From the NCBI GenBank assembly GCA_017621875.1, contig JAGASE010000003.1, positions 5,473 through 69,472 on the forward strand: a stretch of 64,000 nucleotides of DNA, in the 5' to 3' direction. Below the pieces are notes generated by a model that was given only the letters and a program-made list of their open reading frames with translations, did no database searches and had not been told where the DNA came from. This document shows, piece by piece, positions 11,047-34,093 of this stretch. This DNA is from Clostridia bacterium. Its GTDB lineage: Bacteria; Bacillota; Clostridia; UBA1381. Both the position numbers and the translations under genes were made by a program. The first letter of the stretch is position 1, and the number at the start of each line of letters is the position of its first letter.

Positions 11047-13545
11047 TTATTTTTCCATTCTTTTGCTTACCGCCTTTTGCAGCTCCACAATAACAATAGG
11101 CAGCACCGACAATACTGCAACAATCACCCATTGTGTTCCCGTTAGCGGTGTTACTTTAAACAGCTTTGCCAAGACGCTTATGTTCACTACACAAGCCTGC
11201 ATCAAAATTCCTGCCGCAAGCGACACCAAAAGCATAGGGTTTCGGAAAAATTCTTTGTTTAAAACCGAGCCTTCGCTCCGCATATTAAACGCATGGAAAA
11301 GCTGCGACATTGACAGCACGCAAAACGCCATTGTTCTGGCGATTTGAGGTGACGTCCCCATATCGAACAGGTTATGCCCTATCGAAAATGCAAGAAGTGC
11401 AAGCGCTCCTATCATGCCGCCCTCAACGCAAATCGACGCCCACAAGCCATCCGCAAACAGACTTTTTTTCGGATTTCTCGGTTTTCTGAGCATTATCCCC
11501 TCATCAACCGGGTCAAGTCCCAGTGCAATCGCCGGCAAAGAATCGGTTACAAGGTTTACCCAAAGCAGCTGAATTGCCAAAAGCGGCGGCTCCCAGCCGA
11601 ACAGCATACCTATAAAAATCGTAATAACCTCGCCTATATTTGACGAAAGCAGGAATTGTATAGATTTTTTTATATTTTCAAAAATCCCTCTGCCCTCACG
11701 TACCGCCGCAACAATCGTTGCAAAATTATCGTCCGCCAGAACAAGGTCGGAAGCCTCCTTTGCAACATCTGTACCCTTCATTCCCATACTGCAGCCGATA
11801 TCTGCAGCTTTTAAAGCCGGTGCGTCGTTGACACCGTCACCCGTCATTGCCACAACATCTCCGTTTTTCTTAAATGCCTTGATAATCCGCATTTTATCCG
11901 CAGGTGTAACTCTGGCAAAAATTCTATACCCGCAAATTTCCTCATCGCTTTTTTCGGCAAGCTCCTCGCCGGTGAGAGCCTTGCCGCAGATTCCCACCTG
12001 CTGTGCAACAGCCTCCGCCGTAATTTTGTTATCGCCTGTAATCATAACAGGCTTTATGCCTGCACGAATACATTCGCTTACCGACCGCTGCACCTCCGGT
12101 CTCGGCGGATCCATCATTCCGATAAGCCCCGTAAAAACCAAGCCGCTTTCGCTTATGCTGCTCTGCATCGTGTCCTTATATGCCACGCCGATAACACGCA
12201 AAGCCGCCTCGCCCATTCGCCGCACGTCTGCAAGAATTTGTCTTCTTTTCGGCTCAGTCAGCTCGCACATCGCACCATTTTCGATGCAATGCGTACATTT
12301 TTTCAGCAAAATTTCCGCTGCACCCTTGGTTATTATTCGCCTTTTACCGTAGTACATAACCATAACGCTCATCAGCTTACGCTTGGAATCAAAGGGCAGC
12401 TCGCAAATGCGTGAATGTCCCTGCACATCGCTGATTCCGAGCCGCTTTGCTTCATTTAAAATTGCCGCCTCGGTAGGGTTTGCTGTGCCGTCGCAGCATA
12501 GCGACGCCATCTCAAACAGCTGCAGCTTATCCTCTGCCACACTTTCGGTAACGGTCATGCGATTTTGTGTGAGTGTCCCCGTTTTATCGGCACAAATTAC
12601 GGTTGCACCACCCAATGACTCCACAGCAGAGAGCTGCTTTACAATGGATTTTTTCTTTGCCATTCGCTGTACTCCCATTGCAAGCACCACCGTAACTATT
12701 GCCGGAAGTCCCTCAGGGATTGCCGCTACCGCAAGACTTACCGAAGTCAAAAACATTGAAAAAGGCGGCATATTTTTTAAAAGTCCCATAACGAAAATAA
12801 CTGCACAAATCGCAAGTGCTCCTATGCCTAAGTATTTGCCTGTTTCCGCCAGTTTTTTCTGCAGTGGTGTCGGCTCTTCCGCCTCGCTTGTCAGCATATC
12901 AGCAATTCTGCCCATTTCCGTGTCCATTCCTATTGCTGTAACAATCGCCTCCGCCTTTCCCTGTATAATGCAGGTGGAGGCAAAGACCATGTTCCGACGC
13001 TCGGCAAGAGGCGTAAATTCGTCAAGAACACAGTCACTTTCCTTGCCTGCCGGCATCGCCTCGCCTGTCAGGGTGGATTCATCGGCTTCGAGATTGACCG
13101 CCTTTAAAAGACGTGCATCGGCACTTACGCAGTCACCCGTTTTAAGCAGCAGTACATCGCCTATACGTACCTCCTCGGAGGGTATTGTCATAAGCTTTCC
13201 GCCGCGTCTTACCTCCGCCTGCGGCGATGACATTTTTTTGAGTGCCTCAATAGCGTTGTCCGCTTTGCTTTCCTCAAATACACCAAGTACCGCGTTTAAT
13301 ATCACAATCGCTAAAATTATTATAGGATCAAGAAAATCGCTCTCCTCTCCTATAACAGACACAAAAAAGGAGATAGCCGCGGCAATCAGCAGTATTATTG
13401 TCATAAAATCGGAAAACTGCATGAAAAATCGTTGTAAAAGACTTTTTTTCTTTTTTGTACGCAAACAATTTTTGACCCGTACATCAAAGCCTGTGCGGGA
13501 TATGTACTCTGCAGCTTCTGCTGCCGTCATCGCATAAAAGTTCAT
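11047..13545 (-). CDS. Calcium-translocating P-type ATPase (P2A/PMCA-SERCA-like)
   Basis: It has DKTGTLT, TGDN and GDGVNDAPALK motifs and 10 predicted TM segments. The start is chosen at ATG 13545 (MNFYAMTAAEA...), which has GAGGG upstream. The longest ORF extends to 13581. Confidence 0.9.
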   Translation of the reverse strand: MNFYAMTAAEAAEYISRTGFDVRVKNCLRTKKKKSLLQRFFMQFSDFMTIILLIAAAISFFVSVIGEESDFLDPIIILAIVILNAVLGVFEESKADNAIEALKKMSSPQAEVRRGGKLMTIPSEEVRIGDVLLLKTGDCVSADARLLKAVNLEADESTLTGEAMPAGKESDCVLDEFTPLAERRNMVFASTCIIQGKAEAIVTAIGMDTEMGRIADMLTSEAEEPTPLQKKLAETGKYLGIGALAICAVIFVMGLLKNMPPFSMFLTSVSLAVAAIPEGLPAIVTVVLAMGVQRMAKKKSIVKQLSAVESLGGATVICADKTGTLTQNRMTVTESVAEDKLQLFEMASLCCDGTANPTEAAILNEAKRLGISDVQGHSRICELPFDSKRKLMSVMVMYYGKRRIITKGAAEILLKKCTHCIENGAMCELTEPKRRQILADVRRMGEAALRVIGVAYKDTMQSSISESGLVFTGLIGMMDPPRPEVQRSVSECIRAGIKPVMITGDNKITAEAVAQQVGICGKALTGEELAEKSDEEICGYRIFARVTPADKMRIIKAFKKNGDVVAMTGDGVNDAPALKAADIGCSMGMKGTDVAKEASDLVLADDNFATIVAAVREGRGIFENIKKSIQFLLSSNIGEVITIFIGMLFGWEPPLLAIQLLWVNLVTDSLPAIALGLDPVDEGIMLRKPRNPKKSLFADGLWASICVEGGMIGALALLAFSIGHNLFDMGTSPQIARTMAFCVLSMSQLFHAFNMRSEGSVLNKEFFRNPMLLVSLAAGILMQACVVNISVLAKLFKVTPLTGTQWVIVAVLSVLPIVIVELQKAVSKRMEK

Positions 13546-13627
13546 TAAAATCAATCCCTCTCTGTTTATTCTTACTAACATTACTATGTTTTTTTAGTAT
13601 AATTATGCAAAGTTTTTTGTGTCCCTA

Positions 13628-24864: not shown

Positions 24865-25053
24865 TTACAACCTGTTTTTTATTCTGCTCACTATTTTATT
24901 ATATTCTCCCAAATAATACTGATAGATAGGACATTCGTCCGTATTACAGCTGCTGCAAAATTTTTCGTGCATTTCATCGGTTATTGACTTTCCGCCCAAT
25001 TCGCAATAATAACCGCTTTCTGTCTTCGAGCAAGAGCTACATTTTTCAGCCAT
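24865..25053 (-). CDS. Small Cys-rich (zinc-ribbon-like) hypothetical protein
   Basis: The 62 aa product has CSSC...C and CSSCNTDEC pairs, GGAGG upstream and its own terminator at about 24801-24835. It is divergent from an XRE gene. Confidence 0.5.
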   Translation of the reverse strand: MAEKCSSCSKTESGYYCELGGKSITDEMHEKFCSSCNTDECPIYQYYLGEYNKIVSRIKNRL

Positions 25054-25476: not shown

Positions 25477-25553
25477 AACGTGCGACCAATTTCTGTCGCC
25501 TGCTTGTATTTCCGACTCTTGACAAATCGCCCAATATGCTATATAATAAAAAT

Positions 25554-25638
25554 ACAAAAGGCAAGACCTCAAACGGTTATGCCAAAAGAATGTATTTATA
25601 AAAATAACGCTTCATTTGACCGTGGGCGTTATTTTTTT
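25554..25638 (+). ncRNA. Candidate antisense sRNA (antitoxin-like), copy 1
   Basis: A perfect TTGACA (25519-25524), 17 nt spacer and TATAAT (25542-25547) are present. The hairpin AATAACGC/GCGTTATT (25603-25633) plus U5 follows about 85 nt downstream. It is convergent with, and overlaps the 3' end of, the 22-codon ORF. It is homologous to the minus-strand unit at 33819-33906. Confidence 0.5.
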
Positions 25639-25697
25639 ATGGAAATTACTAAAAGTAACAGAATTATCATAAATGATATTATGTATTCATTATCCAT
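25629..25697 (-). CDS. 22-aa hydrophobic peptide MDNEYIISFMIILLLLVISIKK (type I toxin-like), copy 1
   Basis: Too short for the ORF track. A GGGGGTGA RBS lies 5 nt before the ATG at 25697. It has a single TM-like core and a KK tail. It is a paralogue of the ORF at 33760-33828, with 17 of 22 residues identical by eye. Confidence 0.5.
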   Translation of the reverse strand: MDNEYIISFMIILLLLVISIKK

Positions 25698-25773
25698 AGC
25701 TATCACCCCCTTTGCAAGAGATGATGGCATAACCGCCCAGCTTTTACGCTTGTTTTGGTCTTACCCGATAAAT

Positions 25774-25802
25774 ATTATACCCCAATTCTACAATTTTTGC
25801 AA
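25774..25802 (-). promoter_or_regulatory. Sigma-70 promoter for the small-peptide mRNA, copy 1
   Basis: On the minus strand: TTGCAA (25802-25797), a 17 nt spacer, then TATAAT (25779-25774). This gives a 5' UTR of about 70 nt. Confidence 0.5.
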
Positions 25803-26028
25803 TATGACATTCTTCAATTTATCCATTTGCAGTTTTCTATATAATAAATTTATAATTTATCAATATATTTACCCCGATTTTTATGCAAAATTTGCAAAAA
25901 ATGAAAAAAACGTCAAAAAAATAACGTAATAGGCTTGTATATTTTGCATTTTTGGTGTAAAATATAGTAAGATAAGCAAGGAATGGTTTTTTCTTGTTTA
26001 AAATATTATGTATTGGAGGACTTTTAAC

Positions 26029-27060
26029 ATGGCAGTTAAAGTTGCAATTAACGGTTTTGGACGTATCGGCCGTCTGGCATTCCGTCAGATGTTCGGTGCA
26101 GAGGGATATGAAATTGTTGCTATCAACGATTTGACAGATCCAAAAATGTTGGCTAACCTTCTTAAGTATGACACAGCTCAGGGCGGTTACTGCGGAAGAC
26201 TTGGCGAAGGCTTACACACAGTTGAAGCAGGCGAAGGCTCAATCACAGTTGACGGTAAAAAAATCACAATCTACGCTGAAAAGGACGCTAAGGATCTTCC
26301 TTGGGGCGAACTGGGTGTAGACGTTGTTTTAGAGTGTACAGGTTTCTACTGCTCAAAGGCTAAATCACAGGCTCACATCGATGCAGGTGCTAAGAAGGTT
26401 GTTATTTCCGCTCCTGCTGGCAATGACCTCCCAACAGTTGTTTACAGCGTAAACGAAGGTACATTAACAGCTGATGATACTATCATTTCAGCAGCTTCCT
26501 GTACTACAAACTGCTTGGCTCCTATGGCTAAGGCTCTTAACGATTACGCTCCTATCCAGTCAGGTATCATGTCAACAATCCACGCTTACACAGGCGACCA
26601 GATGATTCTTGACGGTCCGCACAGAAAGGGTGACCTTCGTCGTGCAAGAGCAGGTGCTGCTAACATCGTTCCTAACTCAACAGGTGCTGCAAAGGCTATC
26701 GGTCTTGTAATTCCTGAGCTGAATGGTAAGCTTATCGGTTCTGCACAGAGAGTTCCTGTTCCTACAGGTTCAACAACTATCCTTACAGCTGTTGTTAAGG
26801 GTACAGACGTTACTGTTGACGGCATCAACGCTGCTATGAAGGCAGCCGCTTCTGAAAGTTTCGGCTACAATGAGGATCAGATCGTTTCTTCAGACGTTAT
26901 CGGCATGAGATACGGCTCACTCTTCGATGCTACTCAGACAATGGTATCTAAGGTTGCTGATGACCTCTATGAGGTACAGGTTGTTTCTTGGTATGATAAC
27001 GAAAATTCATACACAAGCCAGATGGTTAGAACAATTAAGTACTTCGCTGAACTTAACTAA
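26029..27060 (+). CDS. gap: Type I glyceraldehyde-3-phosphate dehydrogenase
   Basis: It has [15 protein letters not shown] and the active site SCTTNCLAP. The start is placed at ATG 26029, which has GGAGGA upstream. Confidence 0.95.
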
Positions 27061-27074
27061 TTACAGCATTTTAA

Positions 27075-27100
27075 AAGAACCGGTTCGCCGGTTCTTTTTT
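27075..27100 (+). terminator. gap terminator
   Basis: GAACCGG-TTCG-CCGGTTC followed by TTTTTT. Confidence 0.8.
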
Positions 27101-27196
27101 ATTATGCAGGAAATTGCGTACAGCAATGACGGAATAACAAAACTGCTACCTTATTCCTACGCCCGCAGGCGGGGCTTTTATCAAAAGCTTTTTTAT
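27101..27196 (+). repeat. About 96 bp intergenic repeat element, copy A (second copy at 50230-50325)
   Basis: ATTATGCAGGAAA...AGCAATGACGGAATAACAAAA.TGCTACC....TCCTACGCCCGCAGGCGGGGCTT.TATCA.AAGCTTTTTTAT. Roughly nine positions in ten are shared with the copy at 50230-50325, which has the same orientation. Both copies begin immediately after a terminator T-run. Confidence 0.8.
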
Positions 27197-27204
27197 ACAT
27201 TATT

Positions 27205-27366
27205 TTATTGAGGTAATTCCTTTTCTTGTTTTTTCTTTAAATGAATTTTTAAAACCATATTTATATATTGAGAAAAAGAGCGTTCGGAATTTTCAGCCAA
27301 GTCCTTTATTTCGTTAATAACATTTTCATCTAACGTAATACTAACCTTTTGCTTTAGCGGTCTCAT
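27205..27366 (-). CDS. Ribbon-helix-helix (CopG/Arc/MetJ-like) DNA-binding protein, 53 aa
   Basis: Below the ORF-track cutoff. AGGTGA lies 6 nt before the ATG at 27366. In MRPLKQKVSITLDENVINEIKDLAENSERSFSQYINMVLKIHLKKKQEKELPQ, the KVSITLDE beta-strand plus the two-helix pattern is typical RHH. Confidence 0.6.
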   Translation of the reverse strand: MRPLKQKVSITLDENVINEIKDLAENSERSFSQYINMVLKIHLKKKQEKELPQ

Positions 27367-27411
27367 TTTTATCACCTCTGTCACTATAATACTACAAAAT
27401 AAAACAAAATA

Positions 27412-27442
27412 TTGACTTTTCTTATAAAGTAGTATAAAGTAG
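27412..27442 (+). promoter_or_regulatory. Promoter with a tandem 10-mer operator candidate (TATAAAGTAG x2) between the divergent RHH and Zn-ribbon ORFs
   Basis: TTGACT lies at 27412-27417. Perfect tandem repeats at 27423-27432 and 27433-27442 cover the spacer and -10 region. RHH proteins typically bind tandem repeats. Confidence 0.4.
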
Positions 27443-27456
27443 TATTAAAAGGGAGG

Positions 27457-27696
27457 GTGAGAATTTTGGCAGAATTTTGTTTGGACTGTTATAACAAATT
27501 TTTTTCAAGTAGTGATGAAAATTTAACAGAAAATGATATTATCTCCGATTTAGACTTATGTGAAGGCTGCGGAGAATATAAGCTTTGTATTATTAAAATA
27601 AAAGAAGACTATCTTCATAAGGTGACAAAGAAACGAAATACTAAATGGTATAGTTTTTTGAAGAAGCTTAGTACGAGGATATTTGGCAAATGCTAA
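27457..27696 (+). CDS. Small zinc-ribbon hypothetical protein (79 aa)
   Basis: It has a GTG start with GGGAGG upstream. CLDC...CEGC pairs and a basic C-terminus are present. Confidence 0.45.
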   Translation: MRILAEFCLDCYNKFFSSSDENLTENDIISDLDLCEGCGEYKLCIIKIKEDYLHKVTKKRNTKWYSFLKKLSTRIFGKC

Positions 27697-27717
27697 CCAT
27701 GAGATATTTATGTTTTA

Positions 27718-27851
27718 GCTAAATTTTGCAACAAGTCGCAAAGCTAAATTATCTCATTCCATTCGATAGCTAAATTGTTTTTTCAAAACAGCTAAATTAA
27801 ATTCGCCGTTAGCTGACCGCAGGTCAATTTAGCTACGAAGTAATTTAGCTA
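27718..27851. repeat. Array of six AGCTAAATT 9-mers (4 direct, then 2 inverted)
   Basis: AGCTAAATT occurs at 27718, 27743, 27769 and 27791. The reverse complement AATTTAGCT occurs at 27827 and 27843. A degenerate TAGCTGACC lies at 27811. Confidence 0.8.
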
Positions 27852-28568
27852 ATGTACATTTGTTTTCGATGGCAGAAAACAAATATAAAAGGATTAAAGC
27901 TTAAAAATGCTTGCAACATTTTTACGAGGATAAATCATATATTTCTGAAAAAGGTTCACAGTAATATATGATTGGTTGATAATTAAATAAGAGAAAAATC
28001 AGAATGTAGAAATTATCAAAGAGGATACCTACAATCTTTTTTTATCCTGATTTAGTTTGAAAGGTAAACGGGCCAAAAAAGGAAAACAACATTAGAAAGT
28101 CCTATCGGCACTTTTATACTGTCTTATAAAAGATGTACGGACAAAGGATGAAGATTAATATATAGAGGTTGGAATAAACGCAGAGTTTTCCATCGGATTT
28201 ATATGCGTAGACTTACAAAAACCGAAGAGGTAGGACAGTAGCTCAAACACGTTAGCGGACGTGGATAATATTACACATATGTCACCGCTATGACATATTT
28301 CAGTATCGGACGTATAGTCGCTTGAGTTTAGCAGGTAGGGATGTAACCGCAGGATTTTATCCAACCCAAATAAGCGGGAATATTACTAACCGGGCAATAT
28401 GCCGATAAAAGAATAAAGACCTCATATAAATGGAGACGAGTAAGATTTGGATGAAGATAAAGCTCGAATCTGTGCGGTTTGTAGGTATTTCATACAGGGA
28501 AATACAGTGGTAACTCATATAAAAACACCTACTACAACTATGTCCGATGTGCGAAAGAAAGGATTAAA

Positions 28569-28996
28569 ATGAATAATACATATAAAAATTTGGAAGTACA
28601 ATTTAACAAACTATTCCGTCATATAAATGTCGGAAGCTACAAAACAAGCGAGCGATATGCAAAAGCCTTTAAAAGATTTATGGCGGGTTGTCCTCGCGGA
28701 CAATCAAAATTGAAAGCCAATATGTCTTTACGCGTGAAGACGGCAGAATGTATTATCCAAGCTACCCGACTGAAATGCTTACAAAATGTCTCAAAAAGAA
28801 TAACATGCCTCACATACGCTGGCATGATTTAAGGCACTCATGTGCAAGCCTGCTTATACTGAAAGGTTGGCAGATGAAAGAAATATCCGAGTGGTTAGGT
28901 CATGCAGATATTGAAACAACAATGAACATTTACGGCCACTTAAATCTTGTGCACAAGCGCAAATTGGGCGATACACTAAATGGTTTACTTGGATAA
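28569..28996 (+). pseudogene. int: Tyrosine recombinase (phage integrase) remnant
   Basis: Frame 28688-28996 encodes only the C-terminal catalytic part, ...QYVFTREDGRMYYP...IRWHDLRHSCASLLILKG...LGHADIETTMNIYGHL (HxLRH and the Tyr box). An out-of-frame 38-aa N-terminal stub starts at 28569. The roughly 200 residues of core-binding domain and box I are missing. Confidence 0.75.
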
Positions 28997-28998
28997 AT

Positions 28999-29019
28999 GT
29001 TAGAAAAATGTTAGAAAGT
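28999..29019 (+). repeat. Arm-type site candidate (TGTTAGAAA x2) between int and the tRNA-Lys att core
   Basis: It is the exact reverse complement of 7561-7581. Confidence 0.6.
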
Positions 29020-29085: not shown

Positions 29086-29161
29086 TGGTGAGCCATCGGA
29101 GATTCGAACTCCGGACAACTTGATTAAAAGTCAAGTGCTCTGCCAACTGAGCTAATGGCCC
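29086..29161 (-). tRNA. tRNA-Lys (anticodon UUU), encoded CCA
   Basis: The reverse complement is GGGCCATTAGCTCAGTTGGCAGAGCACTTGACTTTTAATCAAGTTGTCCGGAGTTCGAATCTCCGATGGCTCACCA, which folds as a cloverleaf with anticodon loop CTTTTAA. Confidence 0.92.
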
Positions 29162-29237
29162 TGGCAGGGATAGCAGGATTTGAACCTACGAAATGCCGGA
29201 ATCAAAATCCGGTGCCTTACCGCTTGGCTATATCCCT
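29162..29237 (-). tRNA. tRNA-Gln (anticodon UUG)
   Basis: The reverse complement is AGGGATATAGCCAAGCGGTAAGGCACCGGATTTTGATTCCGGCATTTCGTAGGTTCAAATCCTGCTATCCCTGCCA. It directly abuts tRNA-Lys. Confidence 0.9.
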
Positions 29238-29383
29238 AAATAACAAACCGAAAACCGCATATTTATGCTGCTTACGGCTTACAGGATACTTCTCCTGCTC
29301 TTTATTTATCTTGGAATCTTGTCCCAAAATCCAACCTTTTTTACACAGAAATTTCTGAAAATAAAAAAGGATGTTTGTAAAAG

Positions 29384-29461
29384 TGGGGTGGATAGTGGGA
29401 TTCGAACCCACGACATTCAGTGCCACAAACTGACGCTCTAACCAGCTGAACTATATCCACC
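29384..29461 (-). tRNA. tRNA-His (anticodon GUG) with G-1
   Basis: The reverse complement is GGTGGATATAGTTCAGCTGGTTAGAGCGTCAGTTTGTGGCACTGAATGTCGTGGGTTCGAATCCCACTATCCACCCCA. Confidence 0.88.
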
Positions 29462-29473
29462 ATATCAAAAAAG

Positions 29474-29550
<77 letters not shown>

Positions 29551-29563
29551 GTATTAAAAAATA

Positions 29564-29638
29564 TGGAGCGGGTGATGGGAATCGAACCCACACAGCCAGC
29601 TTGGAAGGCTGGAATTCTAGCCATTGAACTACACCCGC
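29564..29638 (-). tRNA. tRNA-Gly (anticodon UCC)
   Basis: The reverse complement is GCGGGTGTAGTTCAATGGCTAGAATTCCAGCCTTCCAAGCTGGCTGTGTGGGTTCGATTCCCATCACCCGCTCCA. Confidence 0.9.
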
Positions 29639-31181: not shown

Positions 31182-31326
31182 TTTTCCACTCCTTTCAAAA
31201 ATCGTACTGATATATAATATGAAAGAAATCGGAAATGGTGTGTTGGGATAATTAATATCGTTCCAAAGAAAAATAAGACAACATAAGAGCATGCCCTTAT
31301 ACTGTCTTATTTTTTATTACATATAA

Positions 31327-31548
31327 TTAAGACCTTTTTCTTGGATATGGCTTATTGTCATCAGTTAAATCCATTAAAAAATCAATGCTTGTATTATAAA
31401 ATTTTGCCAATATCACAAGATTGTCTCCTGTAGGTATAAGCTCGCCGCGTTCATATTTTGAAAGCACGCTTTGACTTATTCCTGTTTCCATTTGTACTTT
31501 AAGCTGTGTATAATCCTTTGTTACACGAATTAATTTTAAATTTTTCAT
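31327..31548 (-). CDS. XRE-family HTH transcriptional regulator (73 aa)
   Basis: It has the HTH_3 motif TQLKVQMETGISQSVLSKYERG. A strong terminator hairpin lies at about 31267-31310. Confidence 0.8.
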   Translation of the reverse strand: MKNLKLIRVTKDYTQLKVQMETGISQSVLSKYERGELIPTGDNLVILAKFYNTSIDFLMDLTDDNKPYPRKRS

Positions 31549-31588
31549 ATCTACAACTCCTTATATTCAATTATGTCATAAAATATTC

Positions 31589-31617
31589 TTGACATTCATA
31601 AATATTTGGAATATAAT
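31589..31617 (+). promoter_or_regulatory. Consensus sigma-70 promoter divergent from the XRE gene
   Basis: TTGACA, a 17 nt spacer, then TATAAT. It lies about 480 nt upstream of the 402-aa ORF. Confidence 0.55.
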
Positions 31618-32095
31618 ATTCACATAATGACTATTTACTATAATATCTGCAAGGAAAGGAAAAGAAGATAAAATGATTATTTTTTACGAAATACCCACAT
31701 AAAAGCGATAAAAAATGCAGAAAAATTTTTTGTTGTCATTTTACTGAACCTTTATAAAATGTATTGATAAACAAAATAGTGATATAATAATTATGCCAAA
31801 TTACTTTAATAATTTATTTTAGGTATTCTATACGAGATAGCTGTATATTTTTTATGCTATTTTACAAACTACCAATGAATTTTGTTAAAAACGCAATTTC
31901 CATTTGGTAGGATGTGTAAAAGTATACCTATCTATTAAAGGAGTTTGGCGACTATCGGAGTTTGCGTTTTTTTATGCGTCTACTCTGGTAGGTGCATTTT
32001 TTAATTTGTAAATAAGTAGTGAAGGAGGTTTTAATTTTTTTTTCAAATTGGAATTTGTGCAACATATATTTTTAATGTAGAAAGGATTTGATATT

Positions 32096-33304
32096 ATGAA
32101 AAGAAAAATTTCTTTGATTTTAACATTTATTCTAATGTTATCAACCATTTTTAGTGTAAATGTATTTGCTGCGAGTTATCCATCAATATCTTCTAGTAAA
32201 TATATTGAATTTAAGGCACAACAAAATATAAATGTATACAAAGACACAAACTGTAAAACACGAGGAACAAGTAGTCCTTCAAAAAAGTACAATGCTTCAA
32301 TTTCAAGTGGTGATACATGCTATATATACAAAATAGAGAAAAACTATATACAAGTAAATTACCCGACCTCATCCGGAAGACGTACGGGATATATAAAAAG
32401 AAATGCATTATTTGATAAAACTGCACCTATAAATTATATCTCATCTTCAAAAGCTAAAGTTACTATTCACAAATCTTCAAGCGGTAGTTGTGTAGCAAAA
32501 GGAGATAAAGTATGGGAAGTAGATACTAAAAAAGAATTTAGTGGATATAAAGCTGTGATATATGAGGCTAAATCAGGTAAACGTGCATATAAATTGGGAT
32601 ATGTTACAGAAAGCGACTTAAACAAAATTAAAGGAAACAAATCCACTCAAAAAACTAACACATCAAAGAATGATGTGCCTGATAGCGTGAAACTTGAATT
32701 TAAATTGACAATGTTACATAATGCAGCGGCTAATTTGTCATCAAAAAAAGCAAATGCGGAAAGTGTAATAGATGTTGCTTGTGATGCAGAATTAATGAAA
32801 AACATTCAAAAAACCCTTGGTGTCTCAACTATTGCAGTTGCTACACTAAATCCAACTAAAATGTTGGAAGTTTTGGATACTAGTGCAGCTTCAGGAGTAG
32901 TTGCTCTTACAATAACAAATGCCTTTTATGAAAGTGCGGTTGAGTCTCACAATAAATATCTTAAAGCTGCAAAAAATATTACAACGATAAAACAAGCAGA
33001 CACAGCATTCAAATATTGCGTTGATGCTCTCTCAAAATACAATGCTGTTATCGATGCTAATATAGACACAGTTAAAAGATATACAAGTTTAGCAAATTGT
33101 ACGATTGATATGTTAGAAAGCTACTGTTCTTCTGTTGCAAATGCAGCTATTCCGGGTAATGAATATAAAGCAATCTTGAATGCTTGTGAAATAGCAACTA
33201 CGGTCGCAGAGTTAGGCGATTTAGTTGGAGATAAATATGCTGGATATGATGCATTGAAGAATACAGTGAATACTTGGTATGCTTCTTGGAATAAAATAAA
33301 ATAG
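32096..33304 (+). CDS. Secreted hypothetical protein: signal peptide, two SH3b-like modules, Ala-rich helical C-terminal domain
   Basis: The signal peptide is MKRKISLILTFILMLSTIFSVNVFA. SH3b-like GYIKRNALF and GYVTESDL repeats are present. The roughly 200-aa helical C-terminal half has no motif I recognise. It lies in an AT-rich islet. Confidence 0.6.
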   Translation: MKRKISLILTFILMLSTIFSVNVFAASYPSISSSKYIEFKAQQNINVYKDTNCKTRGTSSPSKKYNASISSGDTCYIYKIEKNYIQVNYPTSSGRRTGYIKRNALFDKTAPINYISSSKAKVTIHKSSSGSCVAKGDKVWEVDTKKEFSGYKAVIYEAKSGKRAYKLGYVTESDLNKIKGNKSTQKTNTSKNDVPDSVKLEFKLTMLHNAAANLSSKKANAESVIDVACDAELMKNIQKTLGVSTIAVATLNPTKMLEVLDTSAASGVVALTITNAFYESAVESHNKYLKAAKNITTIKQADTAFKYCVDALSKYNAVIDANIDTVKRYTSLANCTIDMLESYCSSVANAAIPGNEYKAILNACEIATTVAELGDLVGDKYAGYDALKNTVNTWYASWNKIK

Positions 33305-33759
33305 TATACTTTATAGCAAAAAGAAACAGGCAAGTCAAGGGTAAATGCACGAGCTTACGCTCGCCTTTGACAAACCTGTTCTTTTTTGCAGTATGCCAAT
33401 TAAGGGGATTTAAGTCAAAAGCGGACTTAAATTTCTTTTTTCAAAAAGTGTTGATTTTTAGGTTTTTGTCCCGCAATAGAACCCCATCTTCGAGATGTTG
33501 AATATAAAACCATTACCTTGTGCGTTTTAACACTTTTAAACCGCTAAAACATGGCATTTTCAACCTCTATTGCGTGACATAAATGCCATATTTGAAAAGT
33601 GTAATAATATAACCCATTTTCTGCTAAAATTCTTGCCTTTTCTTATAAACTATGTTCAAATACCATTGTTGGAGAAATCCAACTTGATGTTGGGCAAGTT
33701 CGAGGGCGGTTAGCCACCTTTTTTATTCTGCTGACTTCAGCAGGGATTGGGGTGGTTTT

Positions 33760-33828
33760 ATGGAAAACGAATACATAATTTATTTTATGATAGTTCTATT
33801 ACTTCTAGTAATAACCATAAAAAAATAA
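33760..33828 (+). CDS. 22-aa hydrophobic peptide MENEYIIYFMIVLLLLVITIKK (type I toxin-like), copy 2
   Basis: A GGGGTGG RBS lies 4 nt before the ATG at 33760. The stop codon is embedded in the hairpin at 33824-33859. It is a paralogue of 25629-25697. Confidence 0.5.
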   Translation: MENEYIIYFMIVLLLLVITIKK

Positions 33829-33906
33829 CTGCGCCTCCCGTCAAGATGAAGCAGTTATTTTAACTAAATCTCTTGGCTAACCGCTTTACGGTCTTGCCCT
33901 TTATCT
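33819..33906 (-). ncRNA. Candidate antisense sRNA (antitoxin-like), copy 2
   Basis: On the minus strand there is a perfect TTGACA (33941-33936), a 17 nt spacer and TATAAT (33918-33913). The hairpin GCAGTTATT/AATAACTGC plus U5 follows about 87 nt downstream. The sequence is conserved with the copy 1 sRNA (GGCAAGACC, CGGTTA.GCCAA.AGA, AAAATAAC.GCTTCAT.TTGAC). Confidence 0.5.
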
Positions 33907-34093
33907 GTTTATATTATAATCCAAATATTTGATTTTGTCAATAAAAATTACGAAAAAAGCTATGCGGACGAAAAATCGTCTGTATAGCTTTTATTCTCTG
34001 CAACCCTTTGAGGCCGTCGATACCTATACTGTTTTATTGAGGCTGTCATATTAGGTGCTTTTTTGATAGTTGTTGGCTATGGTGAATGGTTAA

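Follow-up and report, generated by a model that had tools for sequence, protein, structure and literature searches.

Toxin-antitoxin (TA) systems of type I pair a hydrophobic peptide of fewer than 60 amino acids, which has a charged terminus and is under coding-type selection, with a cis-antisense RNA gene that has its own promoter and terminator. In TxpA/RatA and BsrG/SR4 of Bacillus subtilis, the two genes converge, and the antisense RNA, encoded on the 3' side, overlaps the end of the toxin open reading frame (ORF) and the 3' untranslated region (UTR); the peptides (28-60 amino acids) have a charged C-terminus, the Shine-Dalgarno (SD) sequence is partly sequestered, and the loci lie in prophages or islands. 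The par system (Fst/RNA II) of Enterococcus faecalis pAD1 has convergent promoters and a bidirectional terminator with complementary stem-loops; a stem-loop hides its SD, and the outermost 5' end of its toxin mRNA is held in an intramolecular helix (5'-UH). In hok/Sok, through the fold-back inhibition (fbi) element, and in AapA1/IsoA1 of Helicobacter pylori, both Gram-negative, base pairing of the 5' end with the 3' end closes the mRNA; the full-length form, whose SD is buried, is inert and stable and is activated by 3' trimming. The Ibs/Sib systems of Enterobacteria occur in multiple copies and combine very short hydrophobic toxins (18-19 amino acids) with strong constitutive antisense genes. 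Here we analysed a 64,000-nt stretch (hereafter the window) of contig JAGASE010000003.1, a metagenome scaffold from a Clostridia bacterium. It contains, at 33616..33992, a compact two-gene cassette (copy 2) in which a gene for a 22-residue membrane-type peptide opposes a small antisense RNA gene, and a paralogue (copy 1) at 25515..25802. We consider it likely that both belong to a large family of type I TA-like modules in gut Clostridia that has so far gone unannotated, with a layout that appears to join the Gram-positive 3'-overlap arrangement to a hok/AapA1-like end-to-end lock. A first-pass annotation of the window had proposed a type I TA-like cassette with a paralogue at 25.6 kb. That interpretation was largely right, although the RNA boundaries and a supposed link to XRE-family regulators needed correction; the names toxin and antitoxin stand for putative functions throughout.

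All of the elements that had been listed for 33633-33941 are present. Copy 2 has two convergent promoters of sigma-70 type. On the minus strand, the antisense promoter (33913..33941) is, as claimed, a perfect TTGACA-17-TATAAT, and it was the only 12/12 promoter match in a 900-nt scan. The toxin promoter on the plus strand, TTGCCT-17-TCAAAT at 33633..33661 with a TG at -15/-14, had been offered as a best guess, which is strengthened by its alignment with an element, TTGCAT-17-(TGt)TAAAAT, that some 20 relatives conserve; its -10 box is weakened by a C at position 2 (TCAAAT vs TAAAAT in these relatives). Between the promoters, the plus-strand ORF at 33760..33828 begins with the proposed ATG at 33760, is preceded by the SD GGGGTGG (33749-33755), and encodes MENEYIIYFMIVLLLLVITIKK, a peptide with an acidic N-terminus, a 15-residue hydrophobic core, a KK C-terminus, and a GRAVY (grand average of hydropathy) of 1.4. 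The stop codon (33826-33828) indeed falls inside a hairpin, where it is part of the left arm; the two arms form a perfect inverted repeat of 11 bp (33822-33832/33851-33861). This hairpin (T1, 33822..33861, both strands) would terminate the antisense RNA. It is followed by U7 on the minus strand and by U4 in the sense direction, in which T1 is probably leaky.

The putative antitoxin RNA, placed at 33816..33906 (minus strand) by promoter position, fold, and an nhmmer match (E = 9e-17), has predicted ends that give a length of about 90 nt; it starts with a conserved 5' hairpin, continues through a single-stranded spacer that varies, and closes with T1. The earlier estimate of about 87 nt, ending at the hairpin plus five U, was correct about the hairpin but not about the number of U residues, which is seven.

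Copy 1, a minus-strand type B cassette identified by sequence, folds, and profile search, repeats this layout, which bears out the proposed paralogy. Its toxin promoter (TTGCAA-17-TATAAT, 25802-25774) is strong; the predicted toxin mRNA runs from ~25767 to 25554, and the ORF at 25697-25629 encodes MDNEYIISFMIILLLLVISIKK. A T1 hairpin (arms 25639-25626 and 25610-25597) covers the stop codon, the 3' arm lies at 25584-25561 according to sequence and fold, and the promoter scan found a 12/12 antisense promoter on the plus strand at 25519-25547. The conserved type B block spans ~25515-25785. The ORFs of the two copies differ at 12 nucleotides, corresponding to five synonymous and four non-synonymous codon changes; 18 of the 22 residues are identical, rather than the 17 counted before, and all four replacements are conservative, in line with the earlier description of the differences as conservative or hydrophobic. 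Pairwise alignment showed that similarity extends from the SD to the antisense -10 box and that the flanks are unrelated, again as described. Profile hidden Markov models (HMMs) built from relatives recognised exactly the two copies across the whole window, with E-values of 3e-54 and 5.5e-58, whereas the next best value was > 0.2; there is thus no third copy, and the two matches are not a product of chance.

The central structural feature of both copies is an inverted repeat of about 25 bp between the toxin 5' UTR and sequence beyond the T1 hairpin, within the antisense gene. For copy 2, the 5' strands are P1 (GGGCAAG, 33692-33698) and P3 (GGGCGGTTAGCCA, 33704-33716), together occupying 33692..33716 on the plus strand, and the 3' arm at 33874..33906 (plus strand) supplies the matching 3' strands, TGGCTAACCGC for P3 and CTTGCCC for P1, with a U-rich tail after them; the pairing reads GCGGTTAGCCA/TGGCTAACCGC plus GGGCAAG/CTTGCCC. 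In copy 1 the corresponding pairing is CGGTTATGCCA/TGGCATAACCG plus GGTAAGACC/GGTCTTGCC, so that the sequences differ between the copies and complementarity is maintained. Nearly all related loci form a contiguous duplex between the 5' UTR and the 3' arm, with a mean energy of -32 kcal/mol. Positions that depart from Watson-Crick pairing comprise 378 G.U and five A.C when read on the sense strand, an asymmetry that neither DNA-level repeats nor homology between 5' UTR and antisense RNA can explain and that points to pairing at the RNA level. When 49 distinct arm pairs were aligned, 98.1% of cells were paired, vs 32-52% with the partner slid. Changes on both sides occurred in five pairs (a number reached by at most 1 out of 500 shuffles) and in 14 cells (0 out of 500 shuffles); the double change in locus L025 preserves the long-distance helix and breaks both alternative local hairpins.

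The first-pass annotation had both RNAs end at the shared hairpin. Since the 5' UTR pairs with sequence past that hairpin, and does so with covariation, the toxin mRNA is expected to read through to a second terminator, T2. The probable T2 is the 3' arm, which forms an imperfect hairpin by itself, with its U-tract, and the toxin mRNA probably ends there. Counted from the first paired base, the predicted mRNA is 214 nt in both copies. In copy 1 the first paired base of the end-to-end helix is also the predicted start site; copy 2 would reach about 239 nt because of an additional folded 5'-terminal hairpin, P0 (GTTGGAGAAATCCAAC, 33668..33683, plus strand), which copy 1 lacks and for which many relatives carry GTYGGAGNAATCCRA. 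Both sense RNAs folded far better than shuffled sequences (z = -8.4 and -5.7), and the antisense RNAs also folded better than shuffles (z = -3.3 for copy 2 and -3.8 for copy 1). With these ends, the antisense RNA is fully complementary to the last ~90 nt of the mRNA (91-nt complementarity), including the last ~4 codons and the entire 3' UTR.

The minimum free energy and centroid folds place the SD of copy 2 in a sequestering element (33712..33755, plus strand) that consists of an anti-SD strand (AGCCACCTT, 33712-33720), a small hairpin (33728-33743), and the SD itself. The probability that the SD and AUG are unpaired is ~0.09 in copy 2 and ~0.11 across the family, vs 0.32 overall. The ribosome-binding-site-occluding pairing that had been proposed (AGCCACCUU/GGGGUGGUU) is supported by covariation of the anti-SD helix between subfamilies (ACC/GGU vs AUC/GAU). 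T1 stems vary as well: counting in stem register found 75 distinct sequences in 102 relatives, with many Watson-Crick swaps. We used this counting instead of RNAalifold on a MAFFT alignment of the 102 antisense RNAs, which misaligned the variable terminator stems and reported three invariant pairs only.

A separate observation concerns the antisense RNAs of the window (33816-33906, minus strand, and 25554-25644, plus strand), each of which can pair over 70-75 nt with the 3' UTR of the non-cognate mRNA (-78 to -91 kcal/mol); cross-talk between copies 1 and 2 is therefore possible.

We identified more than 120 related cassettes in Clostridia metagenome-assembled genomes (MAGs), gut metagenomes, phage-like contigs, and the cultured species Monoglobus pectinilyticus. 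A peptide-based search returned 40 loci in species-representative genomes and one viral-contig locus. All 40 genome loci are from Clostridia MAGs of ruminant and human guts (Oscillospiraceae, Acutalibacteraceae, Ruminococcus, and a few Lachnospiraceae), and several of these genomes carry two or three copies. Such a search selects for the peptide; a second search used a 24-nt pattern from the antisense gene only and yielded five viral loci, bringing the viral total from both searches to six, and 81 metagenome loci, some of them tandem arrays of two to four. A peptide-pattern scan of viral contigs gave no matches. The antisense promoter, ATTATA-17-TGTCAA in sense-strand reading, is exact in nearly all loci. 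Using blastn against plasmid records, we also found three tandem copies in cultured M. pectinilyticus, encoding MEYVYIIIFMIVFITLIESIKK or MDYMYIIIFMIIFITLIESIKK with no annotated feature beneath. In NZ_OY725742.1 they lie at ~153.2-154.2 kb (locus L130, ~1750-2700), with at least three tandem copies ~335 nt apart.

Copy 2 belongs to type A, whose block runs from the toxin promoter to the outer terminator (33616..33992, both strands) and matched about 20 MAG loci by blastn at 85-95% identity. In these non-syntenic contexts the block ends sharply at ~33616-33626 and at 33992. The relatives share the sense promoter TTGCAT-17-TGtTAAAAT, and no homologues of the HAD and 402-aa genes that neighbour copy 2 were found beside them; the block is therefore a portable unit and not a product of conserved synteny. 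Nor does synteny account for conservation of the outer bidirectional terminator hairpin, an inverted repeat at 33955..33992 (both strands) that is kept in type A loci without HAD or 402-aa neighbours; judged by this conservation, the outer terminator is part of the cassette, which it probably shields from the HAD gene that converges on it. Thus, the earlier view of a selected, self-contained, multi-copy unit fits its recurrence across many genomes in unrelated contexts and the coding-type constraint on its ORF.

The XRE association fared differently. Both copies had been described as sitting in AT-rich islets next to XRE-family regulators. The islets are real, with GC contents around the two copies of 0.26-0.36 vs 0.42 for the whole window, but an XRE gene adjoins copy 1 only, and copy 2 lies 2.1 kb from the nearest one (31327-31548). 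A tblastn search with both XRE proteins of the window found one neighbour in ~125 loci, and we rejected XRE linkage as a trait of the family.

Selection on the peptide was assessed by codon position, a test that the first-pass annotation had set beforehand. In the 32 unique class-1 sequences, the proposed frame is the only one open in all, nucleotide diversity at the three codon positions is 0.117/0.075/0.217, and the ratio of non-synonymous to synonymous substitution rates (dN/dS) is ~0.22, so the expected codon-position bias is present. In the antisense-anchored set, 52 out of 63 unique cassettes contain a hydrophobic ORF of 17-33 amino acids ending 35-62 nt before the 3' arm; on the opposite strand, used as a control, a comparable ORF occurs in 1 out of 63. 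At least four peptide classes can be distinguished, NEYII...IKK (that of the window), MEYVYIM...IKK, MKKYILR...IKVR, and MAKKLLFAIL...IKAE, which may be divergent homologues. In the three classes not represented in the window, codon position 2 is the most conserved (0.13-0.15 vs 0.37-0.40 at the third position), and dN/dS is 0.27-0.32. At the end of the ORF, the codons ATA AAA AAA TAA hardly vary in DNA, and they double as the U-tract and stem base of the antisense terminator.

Class-3 relatives (L058:292-561, L062:2794-3059, L052, L085, L119, and L124, with L052 comprising four tandem copies) are arranged somewhat differently. Their SD lies ~25 nt upstream of the AUG of the hydrophobic ORF, separated from it by a hairpin (ATGCTTA-N7-TAAGCAT), and a conserved-looking, non-hydrophobic ORF of 41-45 amino acids in another frame begins exactly at the SD and may be coupled to the hydrophobic ORF or act as an upstream ORF. 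Of the two frames, the hydrophobic one of 24 amino acids is favoured by codon-position statistics.

Several relatives are decayed. Two (L033 and L043) have lost the ATG and one (L105) has lost an A from an A7 run, giving a frameshift, and all three have kept the antisense promoter. Another (L091) retains only the antisense half and may be an orphan antitoxin. Decay of the toxin ORF with the antisense promoter kept is the sole hint, and an indirect one, that the peptide is toxic. Copies with a decayed toxin ORF and orphan antisense halves are patterns common for type I loci. Class-2 cassettes in two IMG/VR contigs (L044:~13389-13609 and L046:~1097-1331) lie between a tape-measure gene and a LysM/endolysin-like (XkdP-like) gene, in PBSX-like contractile-tail modules and in the same orientation as the tail genes. 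The tandem arrays, decayed toxin copies, orphan antisense half, and prophage-like location in tail modules are all type I traits that support the TA assignment.

In its general features, the cassette resembles described type I systems: the peptide is short and hydrophobic with a charged terminus and coding-type selection, a cis-antisense gene with its own promoter and terminator is visible at the sequence level in more than 100 loci, and the layout matches the Gram-positive architecture listed in T1TAdb. With TxpA/RatA and BsrG/SR4 it shares convergent genes, a 3'-side antisense RNA, the charged C-terminus, a sequestered SD, and location in islands or prophages. However, there is no peptide or RNA sequence similarity to these systems, the peptide of 22 amino acids is shorter than theirs, and the antisense target here includes the 3' strand of an end-to-end mRNA helix. 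Searches of Rfam, Pfam, and NCBIfam gave no match that would place the cassette with TxpA/RatA, BsrG/SR4, BsrE/SR5, YonT/SR6, SprA1, or SprG.

The likeness to par extends to the convergent promoters, the bidirectional terminator with complementary stem-loops, the hidden SD, and the sequestered 5' end, but here the 5' end pairs with the far 3' end, past the shared hairpin. Fst-type toxins carry a PXXXG(C) motif in the hydrophobic domain, which is absent here, and no peptide class contains a proline. [quoted passage not shown] We looked for such repeats at the start region and found none; the only direct repeat is in the -35 region, which is not transcribed. What the 5' UTR and the antisense gene have in common are inverted repeats in the DNA, so that the antisense RNA has the same sequence as the 5' UTR segment and not its complement.

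Closure of the mRNA by 5'-3' pairing with a buried SD is also the point of likeness to hok/Sok and AapA1/IsoA1. In those Gram-negative systems the antisense RNA acts at the 5' region or the ORF, whereas here the 3' arm is targeted; there is no homology, no mok-like leader ORF, and no Pfam Hok match, which leaves the fold-back as the only resemblance to hok/Sok. Ibs/Sib systems are comparable in the very small size of their hydrophobic toxins, their multiple copies, and their strong antisense genes. By contrast, Sib RNA spans the whole ibs ORF, within the mRNA, rather than the last ~4 codons and the 3' UTR, and Ibs/Sib lacks an end-to-end helix, shows no homology, and belongs to another phylum. 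The sequences thus suggest a new family within the type I TA kind, with functional membership provisional.

By analogy with hok fbi, AapA1 (whose mRNA folding is described in PMC6733600), and the Fst 5'-UH, the closed mRNA would be translationally inert, with both ends protected, and hence long-lived. An abundant antisense RNA would pair with its last ~90 nt, from the final codons through the hairpin and the spacer to the 3' strand of the end-to-end helix; contact would probably begin at the complementary hairpin loops or the single-stranded spacer. RNase III would cut the sense-antisense duplex, as in TxpA/RatA and BsrG/SR4, and peeling off the 3' strand would open the mRNA 5' end to RNase J1/Y, so that the toxin mRNA would be destroyed. 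If the supply of antisense RNA dropped, surviving mRNA would be translated, and the peptide would insert into the membrane and cause arrest or death. We also considered an antisense-induced switch of the SD of the BsrG/SR4 kind. In 72 family mRNAs, SD+AUG accessibility (0.115, 0.133, and 0.109, in comparisons that included masking the 3' UTR or truncating the RNA at the first hairpin) did not change consistently, and the tightening of an SD helix by an SR4-like RNA is not predicted here. The absence of an accessibility change on antisense binding in silico favours control by degradation over a translational switch.

Several points weigh against the TA assignment. RNA ends, relative abundance, and half-lives are derived from sequence, and toxicity of the peptide is putative. 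The peptides match no known toxin family, or any other family, in Pfam or NCBIfam; an exact look-up of ten representative family peptides, including both from the window, found none in 15 billion predicted proteins, and there was no match in GenBank phages. A hydrophobic core of 15 residues is short for spanning a membrane. Rfam has no antitoxin family that the RNAs match: no Rfam family reached the gathering threshold, and relaxing the search to E values up to 10 produced only weak, unrelated RNA matches far below gathering scores. Literature searches returned no paper for the peptide strings and nothing relevant on type I TA systems in gut metagenomes. In the folding models, SD occlusion is constitutive, with no evident route to activation. 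The first hairpin is also a decent terminator in the sense direction, so that the long mRNA might be a minor species, and the 3' arm served as the search anchor, so that less variation is visible on that side of the covarying helix. Finally, copy 2 may be poorly expressed because the -10 box of its toxin promoter is weakened.

Instead, the cassette may encode a small membrane peptide that is not toxic, for example a micropeptide with a regulatory or accessory task. The cis-antisense RNA and the structured mRNA would then adjust its expression, and it would play no part in addiction or growth arrest. A hydrophobic ORF under purifying selection, an antisense gene, and a structured mRNA do not prove toxicity, and a peptide this short without homology to known toxins is in keeping with that idea. 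Yet the cassette is autonomous, occurring in unrelated contexts with no conserved partner gene, and is found in tandem arrays and in several copies per genome; toxin-inactivated copies retain the antisense promoter, the antisense half can stand as an orphan, and a perfect consensus antisense promoter is combined with heavy SD occlusion. These features fit a product that needs to stay off, and we consider a harmless micropeptide unlikely. The class-2 relatives, co-oriented with PBSX-like tail modules between tape-measure and LysM/endolysin-like genes, raise the further idea of a phage or tailocin accessory module, whose peptide might resemble a holin, time lysis, or exclude superinfection. Such a module would have become dispersed among chromosomes and would not be a stand-alone TA system. 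This is quite improbable in our view: both copies in the window, like most MAG copies, occupy intergenic islets of the chromosome, without phage genes in the sequence examined; holins are normally far longer than 22 amino acids and are not coupled to a dedicated antisense gene that a consensus promoter drives; and prophages are in any case a typical place for type I TA loci.

Conservation is stronger in the RNA scaffold than in the peptide cargo. Together with the inverted repeats, the two or three terminator-like hairpins, and the sharp block boundaries, this could suggest a purely non-coding element (convergent small RNAs, a mobile element with inverted repeats like those of miniature inverted-repeat transposable elements, or a transcriptional insulator) in which the ORF is incidental. 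But an ORF with a properly spaced SD was present in 52 of the 63 cassettes found without reference to it and in only one on the other strand, and all four peptide classes are hydrophobic with second codon positions most conserved. The inverted repeats lie inside the block and not at its termini, and they mismatch as G.U in the sense orientation only, which indicates pairing of RNA; the ends of the block showed neither terminal repeats nor target duplications. We regard an incidental ORF as extremely unlikely. The same conservation pattern could also mean that the conserved unit is not the toxin but an RNA chassis, made up of the two promoters, the end-to-end helix, the SD lock, and the antisense gene, that carries at least four interchangeable classes of hydrophobic peptide. 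The stop codon lies in T1; a translating ribosome would block T1 and force read-through, and only translated mRNAs would gain the 3' segment that re-locks them and exposes them to the antitoxin. We hold this as a speculative and rather doubtful proposal; if true, it would amount to a feedback that senses translation, of a kind not described so far for type I systems. On balance, a type I TA-like module is the reading that we favour.

The surroundings of the two copies contain further features. A 149-aa ORF in the public gene calls spans copy 1 (25480-25929, plus strand), has no Pfam match, and almost certainly reflects a spurious gene call, behind which the cassette is hidden. The XRE gene beside copy 1 adjoins a publicly called gene for a cysteine-rich, 62-aa ORF (24865-25053, minus strand) with several CxxC-like motifs and no Pfam family. 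Between gap, encoding glyceraldehyde-3-phosphate dehydrogenase (GAPDH), and five tRNA genes (29086-29638) lies an AT-rich (28-39% GC), nearly ORF-free stretch of 2 kb (27000-29000). Upstream of copy 2, an islet at 31300-33304 (26-33% GC) contains an XRE gene and the gene for the 402-aa protein, which has a signal-peptide-like N-terminus and no Pfam family; the islet is probably a strain-specific insertion, because it is absent from relatives whose DNA similarity begins at 33313.

If confirmed, the family would be a widespread type I TA family for gut and rumen bacteria of the Oscillospirales, Monoglobales, and their relatives, for which the databases and papers searched list no type I system of this sort. 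Its genes are invisible to current annotation, with the peptides absent from the protein collection and a spurious call placed over copy 1. At 22 amino acids, the toxin, if it is one, would be among the shortest known. The mRNA architecture, strongly supported by covariation, would combine the Gram-positive 3' overlap with an end-to-end lock as in hok and AapA1, and the tandem copies in a cultivable host, M. pectinilyticus, make the model directly testable. As compact regulatory parts of ~250-380 bp, members of the family may be of use for engineering anaerobic Firmicutes, and the family marks islets and prophage modules in metagenome-assembled genomes.

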